Assembly: GCA_964573565.1 (NCBI GenBank) | Contig: CAZNJV010000001.1 | Coordinates: forward strand, 1-28,888 | Length of the DNA: 28,888 bases | Direction of reading: 5' to 3' | Origin: an uncultured Candidatus Saccharibacteria bacterium | GTDB taxonomy: Bacteria > Patescibacteriota > Dojkabacteria > SC72 | In this document: one piece after another, positions 1-7,493 of the stretch | Numbering within the stretch: position 1 is the first letter of the stretch | How the letters are laid out: every line of letters starts with the position of its first letter | Program-made: the position numbers and the translations under genes | The notes under the pieces: generated by a model | Database searches by the model: none | Seen by the model: only the letters and a program-made list of their open reading frames with translations | What the model was told of the DNA's origin: nothing

Positions 1-33
1 GTATTTTGATGCTAAGGGTTCATATATTGGCAT
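1..33 (-). CDS. 5' end of a gene running off the left edge (MPIYEPLASKY...), product unknown
   Basis: ATG at 33-31 with TATAAT (45-40, minus strand) 6 nt upstream, the same leaderless geometry as many other genes here. Only 11 codons are visible. Confidence 0.4.
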   Translation of the reverse strand, partial: MPIYEPLASKY

Positions 34-117
34 ATGTGTATTATATCGTGTTTTGAAGGAATATATTATAATTAGGTATATCACAATCCTGTGATGAGAT
101 CTTAAGAGGAGGCCCAT

Positions 118-270
118 ATGGGGTTTAGTAGTGTGGTACACGTAAGAGAGTTTGAAGAAAATTCGAGATTGAGACGCATCAAGCGCCGTCGCCGCGTAAG
201 GGCAATTATCCTTATTACAGCTGCTCTTGCTATCATTGCAGGAGATGTTGTATGTATTGTCCTTCTTTAG
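118..270 (+). CDS. 50-aa small membrane protein (MGFSSVVHVREFEENSRLRRIKRRRRVRAIILITAALAIIAGDVVCIVLL), not in the ORF track
   Basis: Hand translation. Strong SD AAGAGGAGG at 104-112, 5 nt before ATG. Arg-rich patch followed by a C-terminal hydrophobic helix. A hairpin follows the stop. Confidence 0.65.
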   Translation: MGFSSVVHVREFEENSRLRRIKRRRRVRAIILITAALAIIAGDVVCIVLL

Positions 271-319
271 ATCTCGGTGGGGGTCACATAATTTTTTGTA
301 CATGTGATCCCCATCTAGA
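266..319 (+). other. Stem-loop at the stop of the 50-aa ORF (possible terminator or RNA-stability element)
   Basis: GGTGGGGGTCACAT (276-289) pairs with ATGTGATCCCCATC (302-315) with two G-U pairs. Alternatively TTTAGAT (266-272) pairs with ATCTAGA (313-319). No U-tract. Confidence 0.55.
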
Positions 320-331
320 ACTTCCCCTAGG

Positions 332-360
332 TTGATTAGGAACAGGTCCTATAGTATAAT
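332..360 (+). promoter_or_regulatory. Sigma70-type promoter
   Basis: TTGATT (332-337), 17-nt spacer, TATAAT (355-360). Confidence 0.7.
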
Positions 361-540
361 ATATGTTGTATTCAAGATTTATATCTTAATACATACTGCT
401 CTTTAAAAGGATCTAGGTTTCTCCCTGTTAGCTTGCTTAATACAATATGCTTTTCATTTAGATATGGAAGTTAGGTTGTATTAAGTAAGACAAAAATCAA
501 TCCCAACTGGGAAAATATATTGAAAAAAGGAGAAATTGAA
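361..540 (+). promoter_or_regulatory. Long structured 5' leader with boxA-like element and anti-SD
   Basis: Hairpin 367-393; TGCTCTTTAAAA at 397-408; TTTCTCC (418-424) complementary to GGAGAAA (529-535); 14-bp stem 432-445/476-489. Confidence 0.5.
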
Positions 541-876
541 ATGACTATCGTAACCGCTATTTTAGCAATGGTGCTGAAGCCGCTTGCGGCAGTTCTTGGT
601 GCCCTCTTCCTCGTGGAGATAATAAAATTCCAGGAAAAGATGCATAAAGATCAGAAAGTTTTTGCATGGATTTCCATGCTCCTGATGTTGGTTTTTGTTG
701 CCGATATTCCTGTCCCTTTGTGGGCAAGATTAGCAATGGTCGGCATACCATTTGTTTTAAACTTGCTGGACATTAAGCACCTTGGAAATGATCGTGGATA
801 CGTTAACGTCAACTTTGTTGAGACTATATGGGCGTTATTCTTAATGTCTATTATCGTTTTCCTCTGGCTGGCCTAG
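541..876 (+). CDS. 111-aa polytopic membrane protein (about 4 TM), unknown function
   Basis: The ORF track starts at TTG 520, but AAAGGAGA (526-533) precedes ATG 541. Four hydrophobic segments. Confidence 0.75.
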   Translation: MTIVTAILAMVLKPLAAVLGALFLVEIIKFQEKMHKDQKVFAWISMLLMLVFVADIPVPLWARLAMVGIPFVLNLLDIKHLGNDRGYVNVNFVETIWALFLMSIIVFLWLA

Positions 877-937
877 ATCACCTTTATTTTGCAGTTCCGG
901 GAGGGTTATCCAAACAATAACCCTCCTGGTGATCTAG
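873..937. other. Bulged long hairpin at the stop of the 111-aa ORF, between convergent genes
   Basis: CTAGATCACC (873-882) pairs with GGTGATCTAG (928-937). Inner stem CCGGGAGGGTTAT (897-909) pairs with ATAACCCTCCTGG (917-929). No U-tract on either strand. Confidence 0.6.
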
Positions 938-961
938 TATCATTACAAATTGAAAAAATAT

Positions 962-1498
962 TTACTTACTGTAAATATATAACCCCTTTTTATTCCTTAA
1001 CACTACCCTCTTCTCTCCCTTCATATCCTTAATACCATTCTCATATGAATATACTACTCCCCCATCCTTTACAAATTTCTCTAACCTAGGTCTTAATATC
1101 CTCAAACTATTCTCATCCAAAAAGCAATATATCTTGTTAGCCTTAGAAATATCTACCTTGTAAATATTCTGTATCTCAAAAATAATATCTTTAACAAATG
1201 GGAATTTAATATCTCTCATCAAATTAGAAAATATTACTAACAGAGGGGAAATATCATATCCAAAACACTTACACTTGTATCTCTCATATACTTTAAATAC
1301 CAATCTACCATCACCACTACCTAGATCTAGGAATGTATCCTTCTTTTTTGCATCTATCAAATCTGCAATCTCATCTAGTACATCATTTGGTGTCTTTGAA
1401 AGAGGACCAATAATGGCAGTCACAAGTATTGAAAGGATAATACAGAGGAATAGTAAAACCAAAGTTATGATTATACCTAGGGTAATACCGTTTAACAT
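962..1498 (-). CDS. Membrane-anchored class I SAM-dependent methyltransferase (FAM173/ATPSCKMT-like)
   Basis: N-terminal TM helix, then P-x-x-x-T-P, motif I FLDLGSGDGRLV and motif II GYDISP. Confidence 0.8.
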   Translation of the reverse strand: MLNGITLGIIITLVLLFLCIILSILVTAIIGPLSKTPNDVLDEIADLIDAKKKDTFLDLGSGDGRLVFKVYERYKCKCFGYDISPLLVIFSNLMRDIKFPFVKDIIFEIQNIYKVDISKANKIYCFLDENSLRILRPRLEKFVKDGGVVYSYENGIKDMKGEKRVVLRNKKGLYIYSK

Positions 1499-1530
1499 TG
1501 TGATATCATTATCAATGTAAATTAATATAT

Positions 1531-2241
1531 ATGTACATGATAGACGGAATTTTACTAATAGACAAGGAGGAAAATATTACATCCTATACTGCTATTAGAA
1601 TGTTAAAGCGAATACTTCCCAAAGGTCAAAAGATCGGTCATGCGGGTACTTTAGATCCTTTTGCCACTGGACTTTTGATTGTACTTCTAGGCAAAGCTAC
1701 TAAGCTTATGGATACCATCCATAGTCTAGACAAGGAATATGAGGTAAAAGCAGAATTTGGATATGCTACTGATACCCAGGATTGTACTGGAGAGAAGATC
1801 AAAACCTCTCCTACTCTACAACAAGTCTCAAAGGAAGAGTTGGAAGAGAATATTAAGAGATATCTTCTTGGAAATATATCTCAGCTACCTCCGCAATATT
1901 CAGCCAAAAAGATTAACGGCCAGAAGGCATATGATCTTGCCAGAGAAGGCAAAGCGGTTGTTTTAAAACCAAAAGATATATCGATATATTCATTTGATAT
2001 TATTGAATACAACTGGCCACTTGTTACATTTAGAGTAAGATGCTCTACGGGGACATATATCAGAACATTGGTAAATGATCTGGGAGAGAAGGTCGGGACA
2101 TATGCTACGGCTATGGAACTTAGAAGAAACAATATTGGGGAATTCGATGTTGAGAGTGCTATATCAACAAAGGATATTAATGAACAGGTGGTAGAGAGTA
2201 TAATGGGGATAGATAAAGTTAAGGAAATATTGAAGATATGA
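1531..2241 (+). CDS. truB: tRNA pseudouridine(55) synthase TruB (short form, no obvious C-terminal PUA domain)
   Basis: GILLIDK, GHAGTLDPFATG (catalytic Asp), PPQYSAKKING, CSTGTYIRTL. Confidence 0.97.
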   Translation: MYMIDGILLIDKEENITSYTAIRMLKRILPKGQKIGHAGTLDPFATGLLIVLLGKATKLMDTIHSLDKEYEVKAEFGYATDTQDCTGEKIKTSPTLQQVSKEELEENIKRYLLGNISQLPPQYSAKKINGQKAYDLAREGKAVVLKPKDISIYSFDIIEYNWPLVTFRVRCSTGTYIRTLVNDLGEKVGTYATAMELRRNNIGEFDVESAISTKDINEQVVESIMGIDKVKEILKI

Positions 2242-2930
2242 ACAAAGGAAAACTGTATGTAGTGGCTACCCCTATTGGTAATCTAAATGATATGACTTTT
2301 AGAGCGGTTGATACTCTAAAAAGTGTTGCCTTCATTTTAGCAGAGGATACTAGAGAAACATCTAAGCTTCTACAAAGGTATGAGATACAAACGCAGTTGG
2401 TATCTTACAGAGACCAAAATCATGACAGAATGATTGGGAAGGTAGTAGAAAAGTTAGATATGGGTTTAGATTTAGCATTAGTCTCTGACTGTGGTACTCC
2501 ATTAATCTCTGATCCAGGATACAGATTGGTAAGGGATTTAAGAGAGAAAGGATACGATGTGTTGGCTATACCAGGTGCAAGTGCATTAACGTCTGCTTTG
2601 TCTGTTAGCGGTTTAGCTACAAATAGGTTTACATTCTTTGGATTTCTACCTAAATCTGATGTGAGGAGGGAAAAACTTCTATCTCAATACAAAGAGCTTG
2701 ATTCTACTTTGGTGCTCTATGAATCGCCTAATAGGTTATTAAAGTTATTAGAATTATTAGAAAAGATATTTGATGATTGTATTGTAACTGTTGCAAGAGA
2801 TATCTCGAAGATGAGAGAGCAATATTTCTTTGGAGATATTAATACTGTTAAGGCTAGTATAGATGTTAATGATTTTGAGAACAATCCGCATGGGGAATAT
2901 GTGGTTATGGTAGAAAACAAAAAGGATTAG
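2238..2930 (+). CDS. rsmI: 16S rRNA (cytidine1402-2'-O)-methyltransferase RsmI
   Basis: LYVVATPIGNL, AEDTRET, VSDCGTPLISDPG, IPGASA, YESPNR. ATGA overlap with truB. Confidence 0.96.
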   Translation: MNKGKLYVVATPIGNLNDMTFRAVDTLKSVAFILAEDTRETSKLLQRYEIQTQLVSYRDQNHDRMIGKVVEKLDMGLDLALVSDCGTPLISDPGYRLVRDLREKGYDVLAIPGASALTSALSVSGLATNRFTFFGFLPKSDVRREKLLSQYKELDSTLVLYESPNRLLKLLELLEKIFDDCIVTVARDISKMREQYFFGDINTVKASIDVNDFENNPHGEYVVMVENKKD

Positions 2931-3802
2931 TGAAATAGCTTCTCGTAATTCTCATCTGTAATTTTCTCCAACTCCTCCACGGATACCCCCTTTATATCTG
3001 CAGCTACCTCCATAATTTCTCTAACATCACTTGGTTGGGCAAACTTCTCCTTAATATTTTTATTCTTTCTCACAGACTGTGGAGGTAAAAATGGCCCATC
3101 TGTCTCAAACAATATTCTCTCTACTGGAACCTGTTTTAATATCTCTCTTACATTCTCACCACTCTTGTAGGTAATGATGGCATTGAAACCAACATAGAAA
3201 CCTAGATCCAAGATATCCTGAAGATACTTAATATCACCAGTATAGCTATGGAAACTACCACGAAGCTTCCCCTTTCCCTCTTGTGCTACCAATCTCAATG
3301 CATCACTTACAGATTCACTCTCTCCCTGCGTATCTCTGGCGTGTATACTCATTGGAAGGTTGTATTTAGTAGCAAGTGCAATATGTTTGCAAAATGAAAG
3401 CTTTTGGATCTCCTTAAGCTGAGATTTAATCTCTTTTGAAATATTTTGAGGGATATTGAATTGATAGTAATCCAGACCGGTCTCGCCTACTGCTTTAATT
3501 CTTTTCCTATTTCTCTCAAACAATTGCTCCCATTCCTGTAGATATGCCCGTGATATCTCATAGATATTCTCCTTAATTCCTTTTTGTAGTGTGATCTCTT
3601 CAAATATTGTTGGATGTAACCCTACTGCGACTTCAATTATATCTGGGTATCTCTCTGCAAGTGCCAATGTGATATCAATATCTACGTTATCTGTAGTCTG
3701 TGAAAGTATATGTTTTCCTCCCATCTTTCTGAAGTTTGAAATAACTTCATCAAGGTTTGTATCTAATGGACTGAGGTTCAAATGTATATGTGAGTCGTGC
3801 AT
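2927..3802 (-). CDS. tatD: TatD-family metal-dependent nuclease
   Basis: DSHIH, GLHP, GETGLDYY, IHARD, HSYTG and ETDGP motifs. Confidence 0.93.
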   Translation of the reverse strand: MHDSHIHLNLSPLDTNLDEVISNFRKMGGKHILSQTTDNVDIDITLALAERYPDIIEVAVGLHPTIFEEITLQKGIKENIYEISRAYLQEWEQLFERNRKRIKAVGETGLDYYQFNIPQNISKEIKSQLKEIQKLSFCKHIALATKYNLPMSIHARDTQGESESVSDALRLVAQEGKGKLRGSFHSYTGDIKYLQDILDLGFYVGFNAIITYKSGENVREILKQVPVERILFETDGPFLPPQSVRKNKNIKEKFAQPSDVREIMEVAADIKGVSVEELEKITDENYEKLFH

Positions 3803-3894
3803 AGTGGAATTTTAGCACAATTTGCAAAAGAGAATACTACAAGCCCTCTCATCTGTAACATTAGTCTTGTAATGTGGTAGAATATGATCCGATT

Positions 3895-4605
3895 ATGGGC
3901 AAGATCAAACAGAGAAATTGGTTGATAATTATCACCATTTTCTTGGTAATTGTATCTGGGGCAGGACTTTTTGTCTCAATACAACAAAAATTATCATTCA
4001 ACTCTTGTGCGTATGGAGAGAATGTATACAGAAGTGGTGAGCAGGTTCCAGAATTTAATGGAGAGCAGGAATGTACATGTAATTCTGATGGCTCCATAAA
4101 ATGTGGTACAGAATCCGATGGTGTCGTATATACTGGCTATTCTTCTTCCAATCTTAAGTTCTCCTACAGCTATATTAATCTCCTTGAGTCTAATACCATT
4201 CTAAATTCTGATGTAACACCTTTGGATGCTTCTTACAGTAATGGTATCTTAAAGGTATCTTTCGAACGAGACGTGTTATGCTCTTCAGATGAGATTGCAC
4301 CTGCACAATCAGGTTTTTACCAACTATCCTCTGATGCTTTGCGTCTTACAATAATGACAAATGTAGATACTTCAAAATATACCGCACCGTGCAAGATCGC
4401 CAACAGCTTTGAAATCTCTGACCCCAATATCTCTTTCTCTGATGATTTCCAGATATATTATGAATCTGAATCTGGAGAGTTCTTAAGCTTGGGTGCATGC
4501 GTTTACAAGGGTACTCTACACGGGGACCAAGATGTATTTAAAGACAAAGATACTACCTCTGTCTGCCTGTGCAATACAGGTACTGTTACCTGTAAGGATT
4601 TATAG
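3895..4605 (+). CDS. Membrane-anchored exported protein with two Cys-rich (Fn1/VWC-like) modules flanking a predicted beta-rich domain
   Basis: The ORF opens at GTG 3874; ATG 3895 is preferred because TG-G-TAGAAT lies just upstream. N-terminal TM. C-x21-C-x-C-x7-C and C-x21-C-x-C-x6-C modules. Confidence 0.75.
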   Translation: MGKIKQRNWLIIITIFLVIVSGAGLFVSIQQKLSFNSCAYGENVYRSGEQVPEFNGEQECTCNSDGSIKCGTESDGVVYTGYSSSNLKFSYSYINLLESNTILNSDVTPLDASYSNGILKVSFERDVLCSSDEIAPAQSGFYQLSSDALRLTIMTNVDTSKYTAPCKIANSFEISDPNISFSDDFQIYYESESGEFLSLGACVYKGTLHGDQDVFKDKDTTSVCLCNTGTVTCKDL

Positions 4606-5631
4606 TAATCCTAGATAGATTCCTAAGATACAGAAGACGAATGTAAATAGCCAGAATCTCATTGTTACTTTGTACTGTGGCCAACCTTTTGCTTGGAAGT
4701 GGTGATGGATTGGAGCTATGATGAAAACTCTTTTCTTAAGAAATCTCATACTTAATATCTGTATCGCACTAGACCCCATGATGATCCATGTCATTGCAGA
4801 CATTACGAGATATGGGATTAAGTTGTCTGTTACTATTCCAATGAAGAAAATTGCAAAACCAAGTGGCATTGCACCAGGGCCTCCATTCCAGAATCTTGCA
4901 GGAGGGATATTGAAATACAGGTCGATGATTTGTACCCCAAGTATTATGCACAGTATAGGGATAAATTGAGTTTGCCCTTGTATGAGAAGAAGTAGGATCA
5001 TTGAAAAATTTATAATTGCGAAGATACCCATCATTAATCCATCTAATCCATCGGTTAATTCTGCGGAATAGATAGCTAGCTGACTAATGAAACCAAGGAT
5101 TATTAAAACTAATGGTGTAATAGATATTGTTAAAATATTGAAGAAGGACAGAGATGTAAATTCCCCTGTATTGTAGAGCAAGAACATTATTCCAATATTC
5201 ATTAATGTTGCAAAGCCCAATTTCCCTAATCTCCATTCAAATCTCTCTTGGAAGGCTTTCATCTTCTCATTATTTTTAAAACCATTTGTGAAGATTACAA
5301 CATCTATGAATCCCCAGAGTCCATACAGTACAAATCCTAGCAAGAATACTTTGAGTACTGGTGTAAGGGGAACTGTTAATGCAATTATGATGGGCACTAC
5401 AATCCAGATTAAGATACCTCCCATATTAGGAGTCCCATTTGTTTCTGTTACTCTCATTATCCTTAAGAATAGGGAGTTATCTCCTTTCTCATCAGCACCG
5501 ATCTTGGATTTCTTAAGCCCACTGACTTGGTTAAATTTATACAGAATACTTATCATTATTGGGGCAAATACTGCGGAACAAACTACAGCAAGAAAGAGGT
5601 AGTTTAGAGAGGTTCTGAGAGTATCTATCAT
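4600..5631 (-). CDS. mraY: MraY-family phospho-MurNAc-pentapeptide transferase homologue with degenerate active site
   Basis: GTPNMGG, LTDGLDGL, FNxxPA and APIHHHF motifs, about 10 TM, located after ftsI. GxxDD is GFIDV and FMGDxG is WNGGPG. Confidence 0.85.
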   Translation of the reverse strand: MIDTLRTSLNYLFLAVVCSAVFAPIMISILYKFNQVSGLKKSKIGADEKGDNSLFLRIMRVTETNGTPNMGGILIWIVVPIIIALTVPLTPVLKVFLLGFVLYGLWGFIDVVIFTNGFKNNEKMKAFQERFEWRLGKLGFATLMNIGIMFLLYNTGEFTSLSFFNILTISITPLVLIILGFISQLAIYSAELTDGLDGLMMGIFAIINFSMILLLLIQGQTQFIPILCIILGVQIIDLYFNIPPARFWNGGPGAMPLGFAIFFIGIVTDNLIPYLVMSAMTWIIMGSSAIQILSMRFLKKRVFIIAPIHHHFQAKGWPQYKVTMRFWLFTFVFCILGIYLGLL

Positions 5632-5663
5632 TTTAGTACTTATTAATTAAGTTATATATTATC

Positions 5664-7493
5664 TCAATTTGCTTTCTGTATTTCCAGATCATCCTTGATA
5701 GCTAGGAAAATGCTTCTCCATACAGGTACGGATGTGTACGATGCATAAGTACTAACCTGTGGCTCTTCAAGCTTTACTAGCATTACGAATTTGGGGTCAT
5801 CGTATGGAGCGTAACCTATTACGGTAGCATTACTAATATCATCCTCATAACCGGTTCCATCTGTCTTCGCAATCTGTGCAGTTCCTGTTTTTGCGGCAAT
5901 TTTGTAACTCTTTAGATCAGATGCCAATCCTCCGAGTGCGTTGTCTATGACACCTTGTGCAAGGTCTTTGCTTATGATATCTGCAGTCGTTTTTGATACT
6001 GGTGTTGATATTGTTTGTGGTTGTATAGTTATTGTCTCATTGTTATCGGCTATTTGTGAGATGATGTATGGTCTCATTCTAACTCCACCATTAGCTAATG
6101 TGCTAAATGCGGAGATTACTTGAAGAGAAGTCGCGGAGATTCCTTGCCCATATGAAGCTGTAATTTGATCTAGCTTTGTCCATTGCTCTAGTGGCTTCAT
6201 GTAGCTAGTACTTTCATCCTGCAAGCCAATACCAATGAATTGGCCTATACCAAATGCCTCTAAATATGAGTAGAACTCTGGAAGGGCGACAGATAGTCCT
6301 GCTTTTGCGGCGCATGGGTTATTTGATTTGGCAAATATTCCTGAAATATCTATCAATCCACTAGGTCTTTTATTCCATGTGTAGATATATCGTCCTTTGA
6401 GGTCTTCGTATCCTGTTTCTGCGTAAAGATCGAGTTTACCTGTACTATCGTTACAAGTATAGTCTTCCTTGATAGCACCTGAATCTAGAGCTATGGCTAA
6501 AGTGATTGGTTTTTGTACAGATCCATACTCATATACATCTGCTACTGCCCTATTTTTCAATATCCATGGCTCAGAGATTCTCCAGTACTCTGATGGATTG
6601 TATGTAGGATAGTTGGCCATCGCTAAAATCGCTCCTGTATGTGGATCCATGATTATGACTGAACCGCTCTTTGATCTCGTATCCTTAACCCCCTGTTCTA
6701 GCTGCTCTTCCACCTTTGCTTGCAAATTAGGATCTATTGTCAATGTAAAATCTTTTCCCTCTCTTGGCAGTATAGGGTCGTATTCGGATGTAAGGATAAC
6801 ATTTCCTGCAGAATCCTTTTCTTCGTATGTATATCCTTCACTTCCAGTTAAATCTCCAAAATAGTAACCTTGGATACCATACTGACCAAGATCATCACCC
6901 TGTGCATCCTGCCCTATGAAGCCTAAAACATGGGCTGCTAAGGTTCCATTTGGATACAATCTCTGTTCTTTGTTCTCAAAATACATACCAAAGCCCGCAG
7001 TGCCATCTCCAAATATCTCTTCTTGTGCTAATGCATTCTTTATATCCGTAGATACTCCTTTTGCTAGATTAACATATACAAAATCGTCTGTTATCTTTTC
7101 TTCTATGGTTGATTTCTCTACCCCTAGGAGACTGGCTACTTCGGTGATGAACTTATCCTTTTGTGAAAAGAATTTTTCTCTCTCAACTGTATCTGTGCTT
7201 AAGGTTGCATATATATCCCAAACGGGTTGATCAACTGCAAGTATTGTCCCATCTGTAGCAGTAATCTTACCTCTAGTAGCGGTTTGTACACCACTAGATT
7301 GGTATTGCTCGTTCGCCATGGCCTTTAATTCGTCAGAATCAACAATTTGCCATCGGAAAATCTGCAATACAACGAGGAAAGCTACAACAGAAATGATATA
7401 TCCAACCAAGTAGATATTGTTGTGTGGTTTTGAACTGCCACTCTTACTTCGATGTCCTTTTTGAGAAGTGTAGAGATGGTTTAGCTTAGCCAT
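5664..7493 (-). CDS. ftsI: Class B penicillin-binding protein FtsI/PBP3
   Basis: N-terminal TM, RGKITATDG, RLYPNG, SVQK (SxxK), SNN (SxN), KTGTAQ. dcw position after ftsL. Confidence 0.9.
   Translation of the reverse strand: MAKLNHLYTSQKGHRSKSGSSKPHNNIYLVGYIISVVAFLVVLQIFRWQIVDSDELKAMANEQYQSSGVQTATRGKITATDGTILAVDQPVWDIYATLSTDTVEREKFFSQKDKFITEVASLLGVEKSTIEEKITDDFVYVNLAKGVSTDIKNALAQEEIFGDGTAGFGMYFENKEQRLYPNGTLAAHVLGFIGQDAQGDDLGQYGIQGYYFGDLTGSEGYTYEEKDSAGNVILTSEYDPILPREGKDFTLTIDPNLQAKVEEQLEQGVKDTRSKSGSVIIMDPHTGAILAMANYPTYNPSEYWRISEPWILKNRAVADVYEYGSVQKPITLAIALDSGAIKEDYTCNDSTGKLDLYAETGYEDLKGRYIYTWNKRPSGLIDISGIFAKSNNPCAAKAGLSVALPEFYSYLEAFGIGQFIGIGLQDESTSYMKPLEQWTKLDQITASYGQGISATSLQVISAFSTLANGGVRMRPYIISQIADNNETITIQPQTISTPVSKTTADIISKDLAQGVIDNALGGLASDLKSYKIAAKTGTAQIAKTDGTGYEDDISNATVIGYAPYDDPKFVMLVKLEEPQVSTYASYTSVPVWRSIFLAIKDDLEIQKAN

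Follow-up and report, generated by a model that had tools for sequence, protein, structure and literature searches.

The leader at positions 332-540 of the window is one copy of a conserved RNA leader family that is lacking from Rfam. The window, meaning the whole stretch of DNA analysed here, is 28,888 nt long and is the entire contig C1 of genome G000 (0.52 Mb, 81% complete). Behind a promoter and a 5' hairpin, the leader carries a box that agrees in sequence with the boxA of the lineage's own rRNA leaders, and the strand that follows this box is complementary to the stop-codon region of the same gene. Such pairing of the ends beside a boxA in an mRNA module is new here. We describe the architecture of the module and the covariation of its helices P1, P2 and the leader-trailer (LT) helix, and from this layout we infer Nus binding, the direction of regulation and cleavage by RNase III. 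In the reading that we favour, positions 332-936 would form an expression module complete in itself, with an mRNA that resembles a precursor rRNA in its layout and is Nus-dependent, clamped at its ends and masked at its Shine-Dalgarno (SD) sequence; we put the chance of this at about even.

An earlier note on this DNA had described a structured leader with a boxA-like site, interchangeable repeats and an anti-SD. All the features that it named within 332-541 were found in place (Table 1), and its overall interpretation is supported in part. It had overlooked that the leader belongs to a multi-copy family ahead of envelope-protein genes, and that the strand after boxA is complementary to the stop-codon region of the same gene.

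Table 1. Features of the leader, its gene and the trailer in the window
Feature	Positions	Strand	Details
Promoter	332..360	+	-35 TTGATT 332-337, 17-nt spacer, -10 TATAAT 355-360; 10/12 vs consensus (consensus scan)
P1, hairpin at the transcript 5' end	367..393	+	stems 367-372:388-393 and 374-378:383-387
boxA-like box UGCUCUUUAAAA (= TGCTCTTTAAAA)	397..408	+	8-nt core UGCUCUUU at 397-404
LT leader strand GAUCUAGGU	410..418	+	weaker extensions 404-407, 395-399
Anti-SD UUUCUCC (TTTCTCC)	418..424	+	predicted helix P0 with the SD; complementary to GGAGAAA 529-535
P2, long nearly perfect hairpin	432..489	+	~24 bp; 432-446:475-489 and 451-457:464-470
P3, small G+C hairpin UCCC/GGGA	501..512	+	upstream of the SD
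Shine-Dalgarno GGAGAAA	529..535	+	5 nt ahead of ATG 541
ORF P0001	541..876	+	111 aa, small four-helix membrane protein; stop UAG 874-876
LT trailer strand	871..895	+	GCCUAGAUC 871-879 holds UAG stop 874-876
3' terminal hairpin	897..929	+	13 bp; no U-run after

Distribution of the leader and the genes behind it

In six of the eight genomes of the genus the noncoding stretch is kept upstream of the gene at 75-85% identity, far more than chance would give, although the protein behind it is only 35-60% identical or non-homologous. Orthologues of P0001 were found in two genus members (60% and 35% identity), and in others the same syntenic site is filled by non-homologous ORFs. The site is recognisable from a methyltransferase gene and truB downstream and from a conserved divergent gene start upstream, and the different small membrane ORFs that it holds lie between a kept leader and a kept trailer. 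A Pfam search with the 111-aa protein gave no match, its look-alikes in a protein atlas were generic membrane proteins only and uninformative, and a related-locus search seeded with it returned no locus.

A search of 120 genomes of the order gave about 130 occurrences of the 13-mer CTGCTCWTTAAAA, compared with 2 of the reversed control. The module was present in 71 of 99 family genomes, with one to four copies in each, and was essentially absent in sister families. Among 121 non-redundant sites, 104 were followed within 400 nt by an SD-led ORF, in most cases at a distance of 105-150 nt; the sites without such an ORF are chance matches inside genes or are cut off at contig ends. A lipobox or a strongly hydrophobic segment was recognised in 96 of 103 downstream ORFs, and Pfam searches of ten of these ORFs gave no domain. 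As judged from the translated sequences, the module is confined to genes for small, apparently envelope-located proteins. The parts follow one another in the order -10 box, P1, invariant box, pyrimidine tract (often UCUCC or CCUCU), P2, often P3, a strong SD and the start codon. A stand-alone small RNA was considered and rejected, since an SD-led ORF always follows the element with no terminator between.

The TTGA and CC.ATAGTATAAT of the promoter are unchanged across seven genus members. In the family, a TAnAAT -10 box, often with TGn upstream, lies 15-75 nt 5' of the box in 105 of 115 copies. Both observations uphold the proposal of the earlier note that a long structured leader issues from the promoter at 332-360. 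From the promoter position, transcription would start near 366-367. GGAG is present in 70 of 79 family leaders. Three relatives in the family (G002, G009 and G110) have CCUCCUUU at the 3' end of their 16S, and a search for the 16S gene in the assembly of G000 itself found none.

At the gathering threshold, Rfam returned only tRNAs and chance microRNA matches for the whole window and 40 related loci, and a literature search found no paper on boxA leaders in Patescibacteria or Dojkabacteria. The leader adds a well-supported candidate family to the uncatalogued cis-regulatory RNAs.

The boxA-like element and the fold of the leader

The box is invariant in the family as CUGCUC(U/A)UUAAAA and lies between P1 and the next helix in all members. 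Its first eight nucleotides in the window equal UGCUCUUU, the core of the E. coli rrn boxA. NusB-NusE recognise eight nucleotides of boxA (PMC3177189), and the pattern GYTCTTTAANA has been used to find functional mRNA boxA elements (PMC5725501); GCTCTTTAAAA of the leader box fits this pattern. The rRNA-leader box of G000, GCUCCUUAAAAG on contig C31, is identical to the box at 397-408 at 11 of 12 positions, and positions 177-208 of that contig read GCTCCTTAAAAG, followed by the strand of the 16S processing stem. About 150 nt 5' of the 16S gene, a box of the form GC(U/A)C(C/U/A)UUAAAAG was found in 69 of 100 family genomes, G000 included, where it directly precedes the strand that pairs with the 16S trailer to form the 16S processing stem. 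The rRNA boxes of other family genomes, GCTCTTTAAAAG or GCTCATTAAAAG, are identical to variants of the mRNA box. One mRNA variant, GCUCAUU, deviates at core position 6, a position that is also C, U or A in the rRNA boxes of the family. In sequence, the leader box is thus the same as the rRNA boxA of its lineage, and the boxA reading of the earlier note is confirmed at this level by the core match, the fit to GYTCTTTAANA and the agreement with the genome's own rRNA leader.

Nus factors may bind at this box. nusB (PF01029) and rho (PF07497), the presence of which the earlier note had left to be checked, both scored above cut-off in G000 and four relatives. An rnc gene is also encoded, and nusB and rnc were adjacent and co-directional in five of five genomes examined; SuhB is patchy in the family. 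S10, NusA and NusG are presumably present in the lineage, as they are near-universal. In the predicted ensemble for G000, the unpaired probabilities of the core range from 0.23 to 0.99, and the full-length fold lets ACUGC and UAAA pair with the trailer.

The conservation of the box runs past the eight-nucleotide core, as ACUGCUC...AAAAGGNCUA, and the extra bases GGNCUA are absent from the rRNA box. This excess, the patchiness of SuhB and a set of regulated genes unrelated to ribosome synthesis would fit a box that binds another factor than NusB-S10, such as a lineage-specific RNA-binding protein, a small RNA or a nuclease; the leader would then be a translational mask and stability module, and its likeness to boxA convergent or partial. 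We consider this rather unlikely. The box is identical to variants of the family's rRNA-leader box and is sited as boxA is in other bacteria, and the LT helix described below explains the extra conserved GGNCUA, so that part of the box conservation would not be due to NusB. In addition, the module occurred only in genera with a UUAAAAG-type rRNA box and in none of five UUGAAAA-type genera, a weak comparison of effectively two groups. When a UUGAAAA-type boxA regulon was sought in the module-less genera, only rRNA leaders and chance intragenic matches were returned.

The predicted minimum free energy (MFE) of the leader is -43.3 kcal/mol (z = -3.85), and 0 of 200 shuffled sequences were as stable. 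In the ensemble of the leader-only fold, the pairs of P1 and of the anti-SD:SD helix have probabilities of 0.8-1.0, and the SD is unpaired with a probability of about 0. A hairpin at the position of P1 was present in 21 of 21 aligned members, where at least six unrelated sequences keep the pairing, and the P1 region has a mean MFE of -6.4 kcal/mol compared with -1.5 for shuffles (105 copies). For P2, 92.3% of the cells were paired and 18 of 18 pairs had compensatory changes in 77 distinct sequences; its covariation score was 0.862 versus 0.236 for shuffled and about 0.16 for slid partners, in an alignment that was fitted to the P2 model. The stem of P3 covaries within the genus (CCCA..UGGG, CCCC..GGGG and CCCUU..GAGGG), and the hairpin recurs in a second leader class. 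Covariation in homologous leaders, by which the earlier note had proposed to judge its leader, was thus found in both P1 and P2.

The same comparisons speak against the switch that the earlier note had built on this leader, in which the arms of P1 and P2 exchange partners and this exchange is coupled to antitermination at a leader terminator. Repeats are indeed present: CTTAATACA occurs at 385-393 and 436-444, and TTGTATTCAAG at 366-376 resembles TTGTATTAAG at 476-485. However, the arms of P1 and P2 share these 9-10 nt only in G000, G003 and G007, and in four of seven genus members and all other genera P1 is unrelated in sequence while P2 is kept. Forcing the swapped-arm pairings gave folds of -14.4 and -24.5 kcal/mol, 19-29 kcal/mol worse than the leader MFE. 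An intrinsic terminator (hairpin and U-run) was sought at 366-540 and none was found, nor did a U-run follow any leader hairpin in the family; in all members P2 is followed by A-rich sequence, so there would be no terminator to overcome in the leader. We regard the bistable switch as very improbable. The alternative in the earlier note that the palindromes are DNA operators is not supported either, because the pairing of P1 is kept by unrelated sequences, at least six of them, the sense strand of P2 has many G.U pairs and the distance to the promoter is variable. A leader peptide was also rejected: G000 has four A's where its relatives have five, and no frame is kept across the box.

Sequestration of the SD, also proposed in the earlier note, fared better locally than family-wide. 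Helix P0 (419-424:529-534) is part of the predicted full-length MFE structure and reached probabilities of 0.9-1.0 in the leader-only fold, and UCUCC is unchanged in the genus. Across the family, the SD is paired with the 5'-most 48 nt of the leader in the predicted MFE structures of 53 of 77 copies (69%), compared with 49% after these nucleotides were shuffled, and runs of at least six Watson-Crick pairs between anti-SD and SD occur in 48% of copies versus 21% of controls. Covariation of the anti-SD with its cognate SD was not significant (z = -1.4), and no cognate advantage is expected for the SD partners if every SD is GGAG. An anti-SD that is locally well conserved and statistically modest across the family is therefore plausible from these predicted folds, the invariance in the genus standing and the covariation not.

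A conserved multi-helix leader with a sequestered SD ahead of varied genes could also sense a metabolite, as a riboswitch, or temperature, and open the anti-SD:SD helix in response. Even at E <= 10, Rfam searches of 250-950 returned only tRNAs and chance microRNA matches and no leader family. Moreover, the sole invariant sequence is the box, which is probably single-stranded, neither P1 nor P2 conserves its loop and bulge nucleotides, which leaves no evident ligand pocket, and the downstream genes are neither transporters nor enzymes. We judge a sensor of this kind to be quite improbable.

Complementarity between the leader and the stop-codon region

The strand that abuts the box has its complement about 460 nt downstream in the window, at the stop codon of P0001. 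In the leader of G000, the A-run of the box is followed by GGAUCUAGG. In the predicted full-length fold, 410-418 pairs with 871-879 with probabilities of 0.85-1.0, and the extensions 404-407:883-886 and 395-399:891-895 also form, as UUUA (883-886) and GCAGU (891-895) of the trailer face the A-run and the ACUGC of the boxA region. In this fold, the LT helix and the anti-SD:SD helix 419-424:529-534 are stacked directly on one another. A local outer stem, 873-882:927-936, could form only at the expense of the LT helix, and its probability in the full-length ensemble is 0. In only 5 of 50 copies, all of this genus, does the leader strand recur in the same sense in the 3' arm of the terminal hairpin.

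The trailer word CUAGAUC also lies at the stop codon of the non-homologous ORFs in G003, G007, G008 and G002. In the family, a perfect 7-mer complement of the leader strand, the 7-9 nt behind the A-run of the box, was found in 60 of 88 complete sites, clustered at or just after the stop codon, versus 25 of 88 scattered matches for the reversed-word control. Leader and trailer strands change together between classes, as in GGAUCUAG/CUAGAUC, GGUUCUAC/GUAGAACC, GGUCUAAU/AUUAGACC, GGCCUAUU/AAUAGGCC and GAUCUAUUC/GAAUAGAUC, and there are at least ten distinct pairs in all. Predicted duplexes of cognate strands had a mean energy of -12.9 kcal/mol, compared with -9.4 kcal/mol for non-cognate strands (z = -12.8; 0 of 5000 permutations), and z was -9.2 when each of 39 leader 8-mer types was given one representative. 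An ungapped LT helix with a median of 11 bp, formed by complementary strands of 8-14 nt, was identified in 62 of 84 sites, the other 22 having no clear helix. Its leader strand begins -4 to +2 nt from the end of the box in 58 of the 62 helices, and it overlaps the stop codon in 38. The predicted MFE structure of the full-length transcript contained the helix in 52 of 80 cases. These sequence comparisons argue that the LT pairing is maintained by compensatory change. In some genera, though not in genus g1 or g15, GGUUCUAC could instead pair with the 5' arm of P2; the pairing with the trailer was preferred.

The same complements could act in DNA, as the inverted repeats of an invertible or mobile cassette that switches or swaps small surface-protein genes behind a fixed promoter. 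Inverted repeats of 8-14 bp do flank a segment, the ORFs between them are non-homologous at one syntenic site, their products are variable envelope proteins and every genome examined encodes two tyrosine recombinases. The mismatches in the LT strands favour G.U over A.C by 11 to 5, a weak bias that is only suggestive of RNA. However, among the assemblies none of about 108 genuine leaders was inverted, the neighbouring ORFs tested (962-7493) include no recombinase gene, and serine invertases are absent in G000, G002 and G110, all of which carry the module. The repeat is furthermore set by RNA landmarks, since it abuts boxA and overlaps the stop codon, and the LT helix is stacked on an RNA architecture that covaries. 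We hold the cassette to be improbable; the LT helix would act in RNA instead of DNA.

A pre-rRNA-like layout and its possible working

Textbooks treat boxA and the Nus factors as components of rRNA synthesis; on mRNAs, to our knowledge, they are documented for no more than a few genes of proteobacteria. The module suggests a complete pre-rRNA layout on a set of small, fast-evolving membrane protein and lipoprotein genes in a family of the candidate phyla radiation. We read it in this way from the succession of boxA, leader strand, looped-out product and trailer strand, from the long hairpin and from the position of rnc beside nusB. In an rRNA operon, the leader has boxB and boxC besides boxA, the LT helix flanks the 16S rRNA, and the Nus-factor antitermination complex (rrnTAC) and processing by RNase III act on the transcript. 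As in such a leader, boxA comes soon after the promoter, and the strand behind it pairs with a trailer that lies hundreds of nucleotides further on; the box has the sequence found in the family's own rRNA leaders, and NusB, Rho and RNase III are encoded. Unlike the rRNA operon, the module encloses a translated ORF of 40-230 codons, its helix has a median of only 11 bp and takes in the stop codon in most cases, and an anti-SD:SD helix and a long local hairpin are added. The leader strand of the module abuts boxA, whereas in Enterobacteriaceae the corresponding strand lies 18-19 nt downstream. The looping model proposes for pre-16S rRNA that NusB-bound boxA retains the leader strand at the RNA exit channel until the trailer has come out (PMC10250234).

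If the module works in a similar way, the RNA would start near 366 with the protective 5' hairpin P1, followed by a single-stranded boxA. NusB-S10 on boxA, together with NusA and NusG, would modify RNA polymerase as on an rRNA operon, and the modified polymerase could then transcribe the untranslated, SD-masked leader of about 175 nt without Rho termination. The strand 410-418 would be kept at the RNA exit channel until its complement at 871-879 emerges, and the two would form the LT helix enclosing the whole ORF. The anti-SD at 418-424 would pair with the SD at 529-535 in a stack on the LT helix, with P2 and P3 as local hairpins between. The finished mRNA would thus be a panhandle, clamped at its ends, translationally masked and resistant to nucleases.

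Translation would be freed when the mask opens, for which the most plausible route is an RNase III cut in the ~24-bp P2; the LT helix, with its median of 11 bp, is shorter than classic RNase III substrates. Cleavage in P2 would leave the SD on a different fragment from boxA and the anti-SD. In the phage lambda N leader, similarly, repression is relieved when RNase III cleaves the leader hairpin. Ribosomes arriving at the stop codon may also unzip the clamp. Activation would probably be due to RNase III or to the passage of ribosomes. A more far-reaching version, which we put forward tentatively and with well under an even chance, is that these bacteria, poor in ribosomes and with tiny genomes, have recruited the rRNA antitermination machinery as a co-transcriptional chaperone that zips the ends of the mRNA together; the mRNA would be stored as a closed ring resistant to nucleases, with the stop codon only a few nucleotides away from the masked SD. 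A terminating ribosome or RNase III would unmask the SD, and the outcome would be a bacterial 'closed-loop' mRNA in which re-initiation is coupled to termination.

If the favoured reading is true, the Nus looping or chaperone model could be tested on a short mRNA that is easy to mutate rather than on 16S rRNA. It would also explain how a few strongly SD-led genes are driven in a genome otherwise reported to be SD-poor, and would supply a sequence signature by which probable surface proteins, candidates for contact with a host or partner, could be recognised. A coupling of envelope-protein genes to Nus factors has no obvious rationale, which counts against this reading.

In gamma-proteobacteria, mRNA boxA elements are known for suhB, rpsJ, prsA and a ParE-like toxin gene (Baniulyte et al. 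2017, PMC5725501), where boxA represses translation, acts from up to 100 nt away, needs the full Nus complex and is coupled to Rho (PMC5725501). The module resembles them in having a box that matches GYTCTTTAANA upstream of a protein gene. The gamma-proteobacterial boxes lie at most 50 nt from the start codon, mostly at Nus or translation genes and in 0-7 copies per genome, and no 5'-3' pairing or conserved hairpins are reported for them, whereas the targets here are small envelope proteins. In the lambda N leader, Nus-dependent translational repression extends over about 200 nt (discussed in PMC5725501). Like that leader (nutL), the module has boxA and a hairpin, a long structured spacer and then the SD. 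Unlike lambda, no N-like protein is known here, the hairpin precedes boxA instead of following it, and a trailer strand is added.

Pairing of 5' and 3' UTRs is reported for B. subtilis hbs (PMC5737220) and S. aureus icaR (PMC3868564), the latter pairing creating an RNase III substrate (PMC3868564). As in our module, the two ends of one mRNA pair there over a long distance, with an effect on its stability or on access to the SD; hbs and icaR are single genes with no boxA. The pairing here, by contrast, is family-wide, spans dozens of unrelated genes, is compensatory and lies beside boxA. General 5'-3' complementarity across the genes of G000 gave no genome-wide signal. Two further genes of this genome combine a boxA core with complementary ends of 12-14 nt.

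ORFs between the conserved leader and trailer

Comparison of the ORF in the window (541-876) with related loci L006, L008, L011, L013, and L025 revealed one syntenic site at which the leader and the trailer were conserved but enclosed non-homologous small membrane ORFs. In genome G003, the flanks at this site were 85-100% identical and the ORF was unrelated. Judged from the sequences, unrelated ORFs inside conserved flanks suggest that a gene cassette was replaced behind a fixed expression module. Several genomes also carried whole-module copies with differing small ORFs on one contig, spaced by approximately 0.6-1.2 kb where measured.

Upstream of the leader promoter, window 60-320 contained a second SD-led micro-gene, encoding a tail-anchored protein of 50 aa. 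Two heptamers in this region, GAGATCT and AGATCTC, were complementary, which may be due to chance because AGATCT is palindromic. The micro-gene was missing from G003 and G007, in which the counterpart of window 1-53 directly abutted the leader promoter.

Coordinates of the features (G, genome, G000 being the source genome; C, contig; L, related locus)
Feature	Location	Strand	Remark
Micro-gene	window 118-270		
Micro-gene -10 box			own
Micro-gene 5' hairpin	window 81-94		small
Micro-gene 3' hairpin	window 266-320		embeds stop codon
GAGATCT	window 96-102		
AGATCTC	window 269-275		
Trailer octamer	window 872-879		
Leader strand	window 410-417		
boxA-core gene	G000 C23:1431-1650	-	outside window
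boxA-core gene	G000 C26:369-930	+	outside window
nusB and rnc	G000 C3:17999-18839		outside window
Tyrosine recombinase, ~445 aa	G000 C8:1165-1830		counterparts in four relatives
Same-contig module copies	L037 (G014 C4) 1501 and 2063		
Same-contig module copies	G030 C12		
Same-contig module copies	G098 C18		
Same-contig module copies	G118 C9		

Other boxA genes, nusB-rnc and the 16S trailer

Two further genes of the source genome, on C23 and C26, had a boxA core (UGCUCUUU or UGCUCUUA) and a strong SD. In both, a stretch of 12-14 nt in the 5' UTR had its perfect complement past the stop codon. They lacked the long leader hairpin P2 and encoded products that were not obviously membrane proteins.

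nusB and rnc (RNase III) were co-directional neighbors, separated by ~65 nt, in all five family genomes examined (G000, G002, G006, G009, and G110), which is compatible with joint action on boxA-plus-stem RNAs.

In the genus of G002, CCUAGAUC was found in the 16S trailer, directly past the 16S 3' end (L051). This octamer, a complement of the leader strand, is identical to that of the mRNA trailer; the identity could reflect coincidence, shared ancestry or cross-talk.

3' ends and tyrosine recombinases

Module genes of the family were followed by strong G+C hairpins and then by A/C-rich sequence (AAAACC...) without a U-run, as exemplified by window 897-940 and loci L088-L178. Termination in this lineage may do without classic intrinsic terminators.

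The conserved tyrosine recombinase of ~445 aa was kept in 5/5 genomes, G000 among them, and the four relatives additionally had a Xer-sized one.
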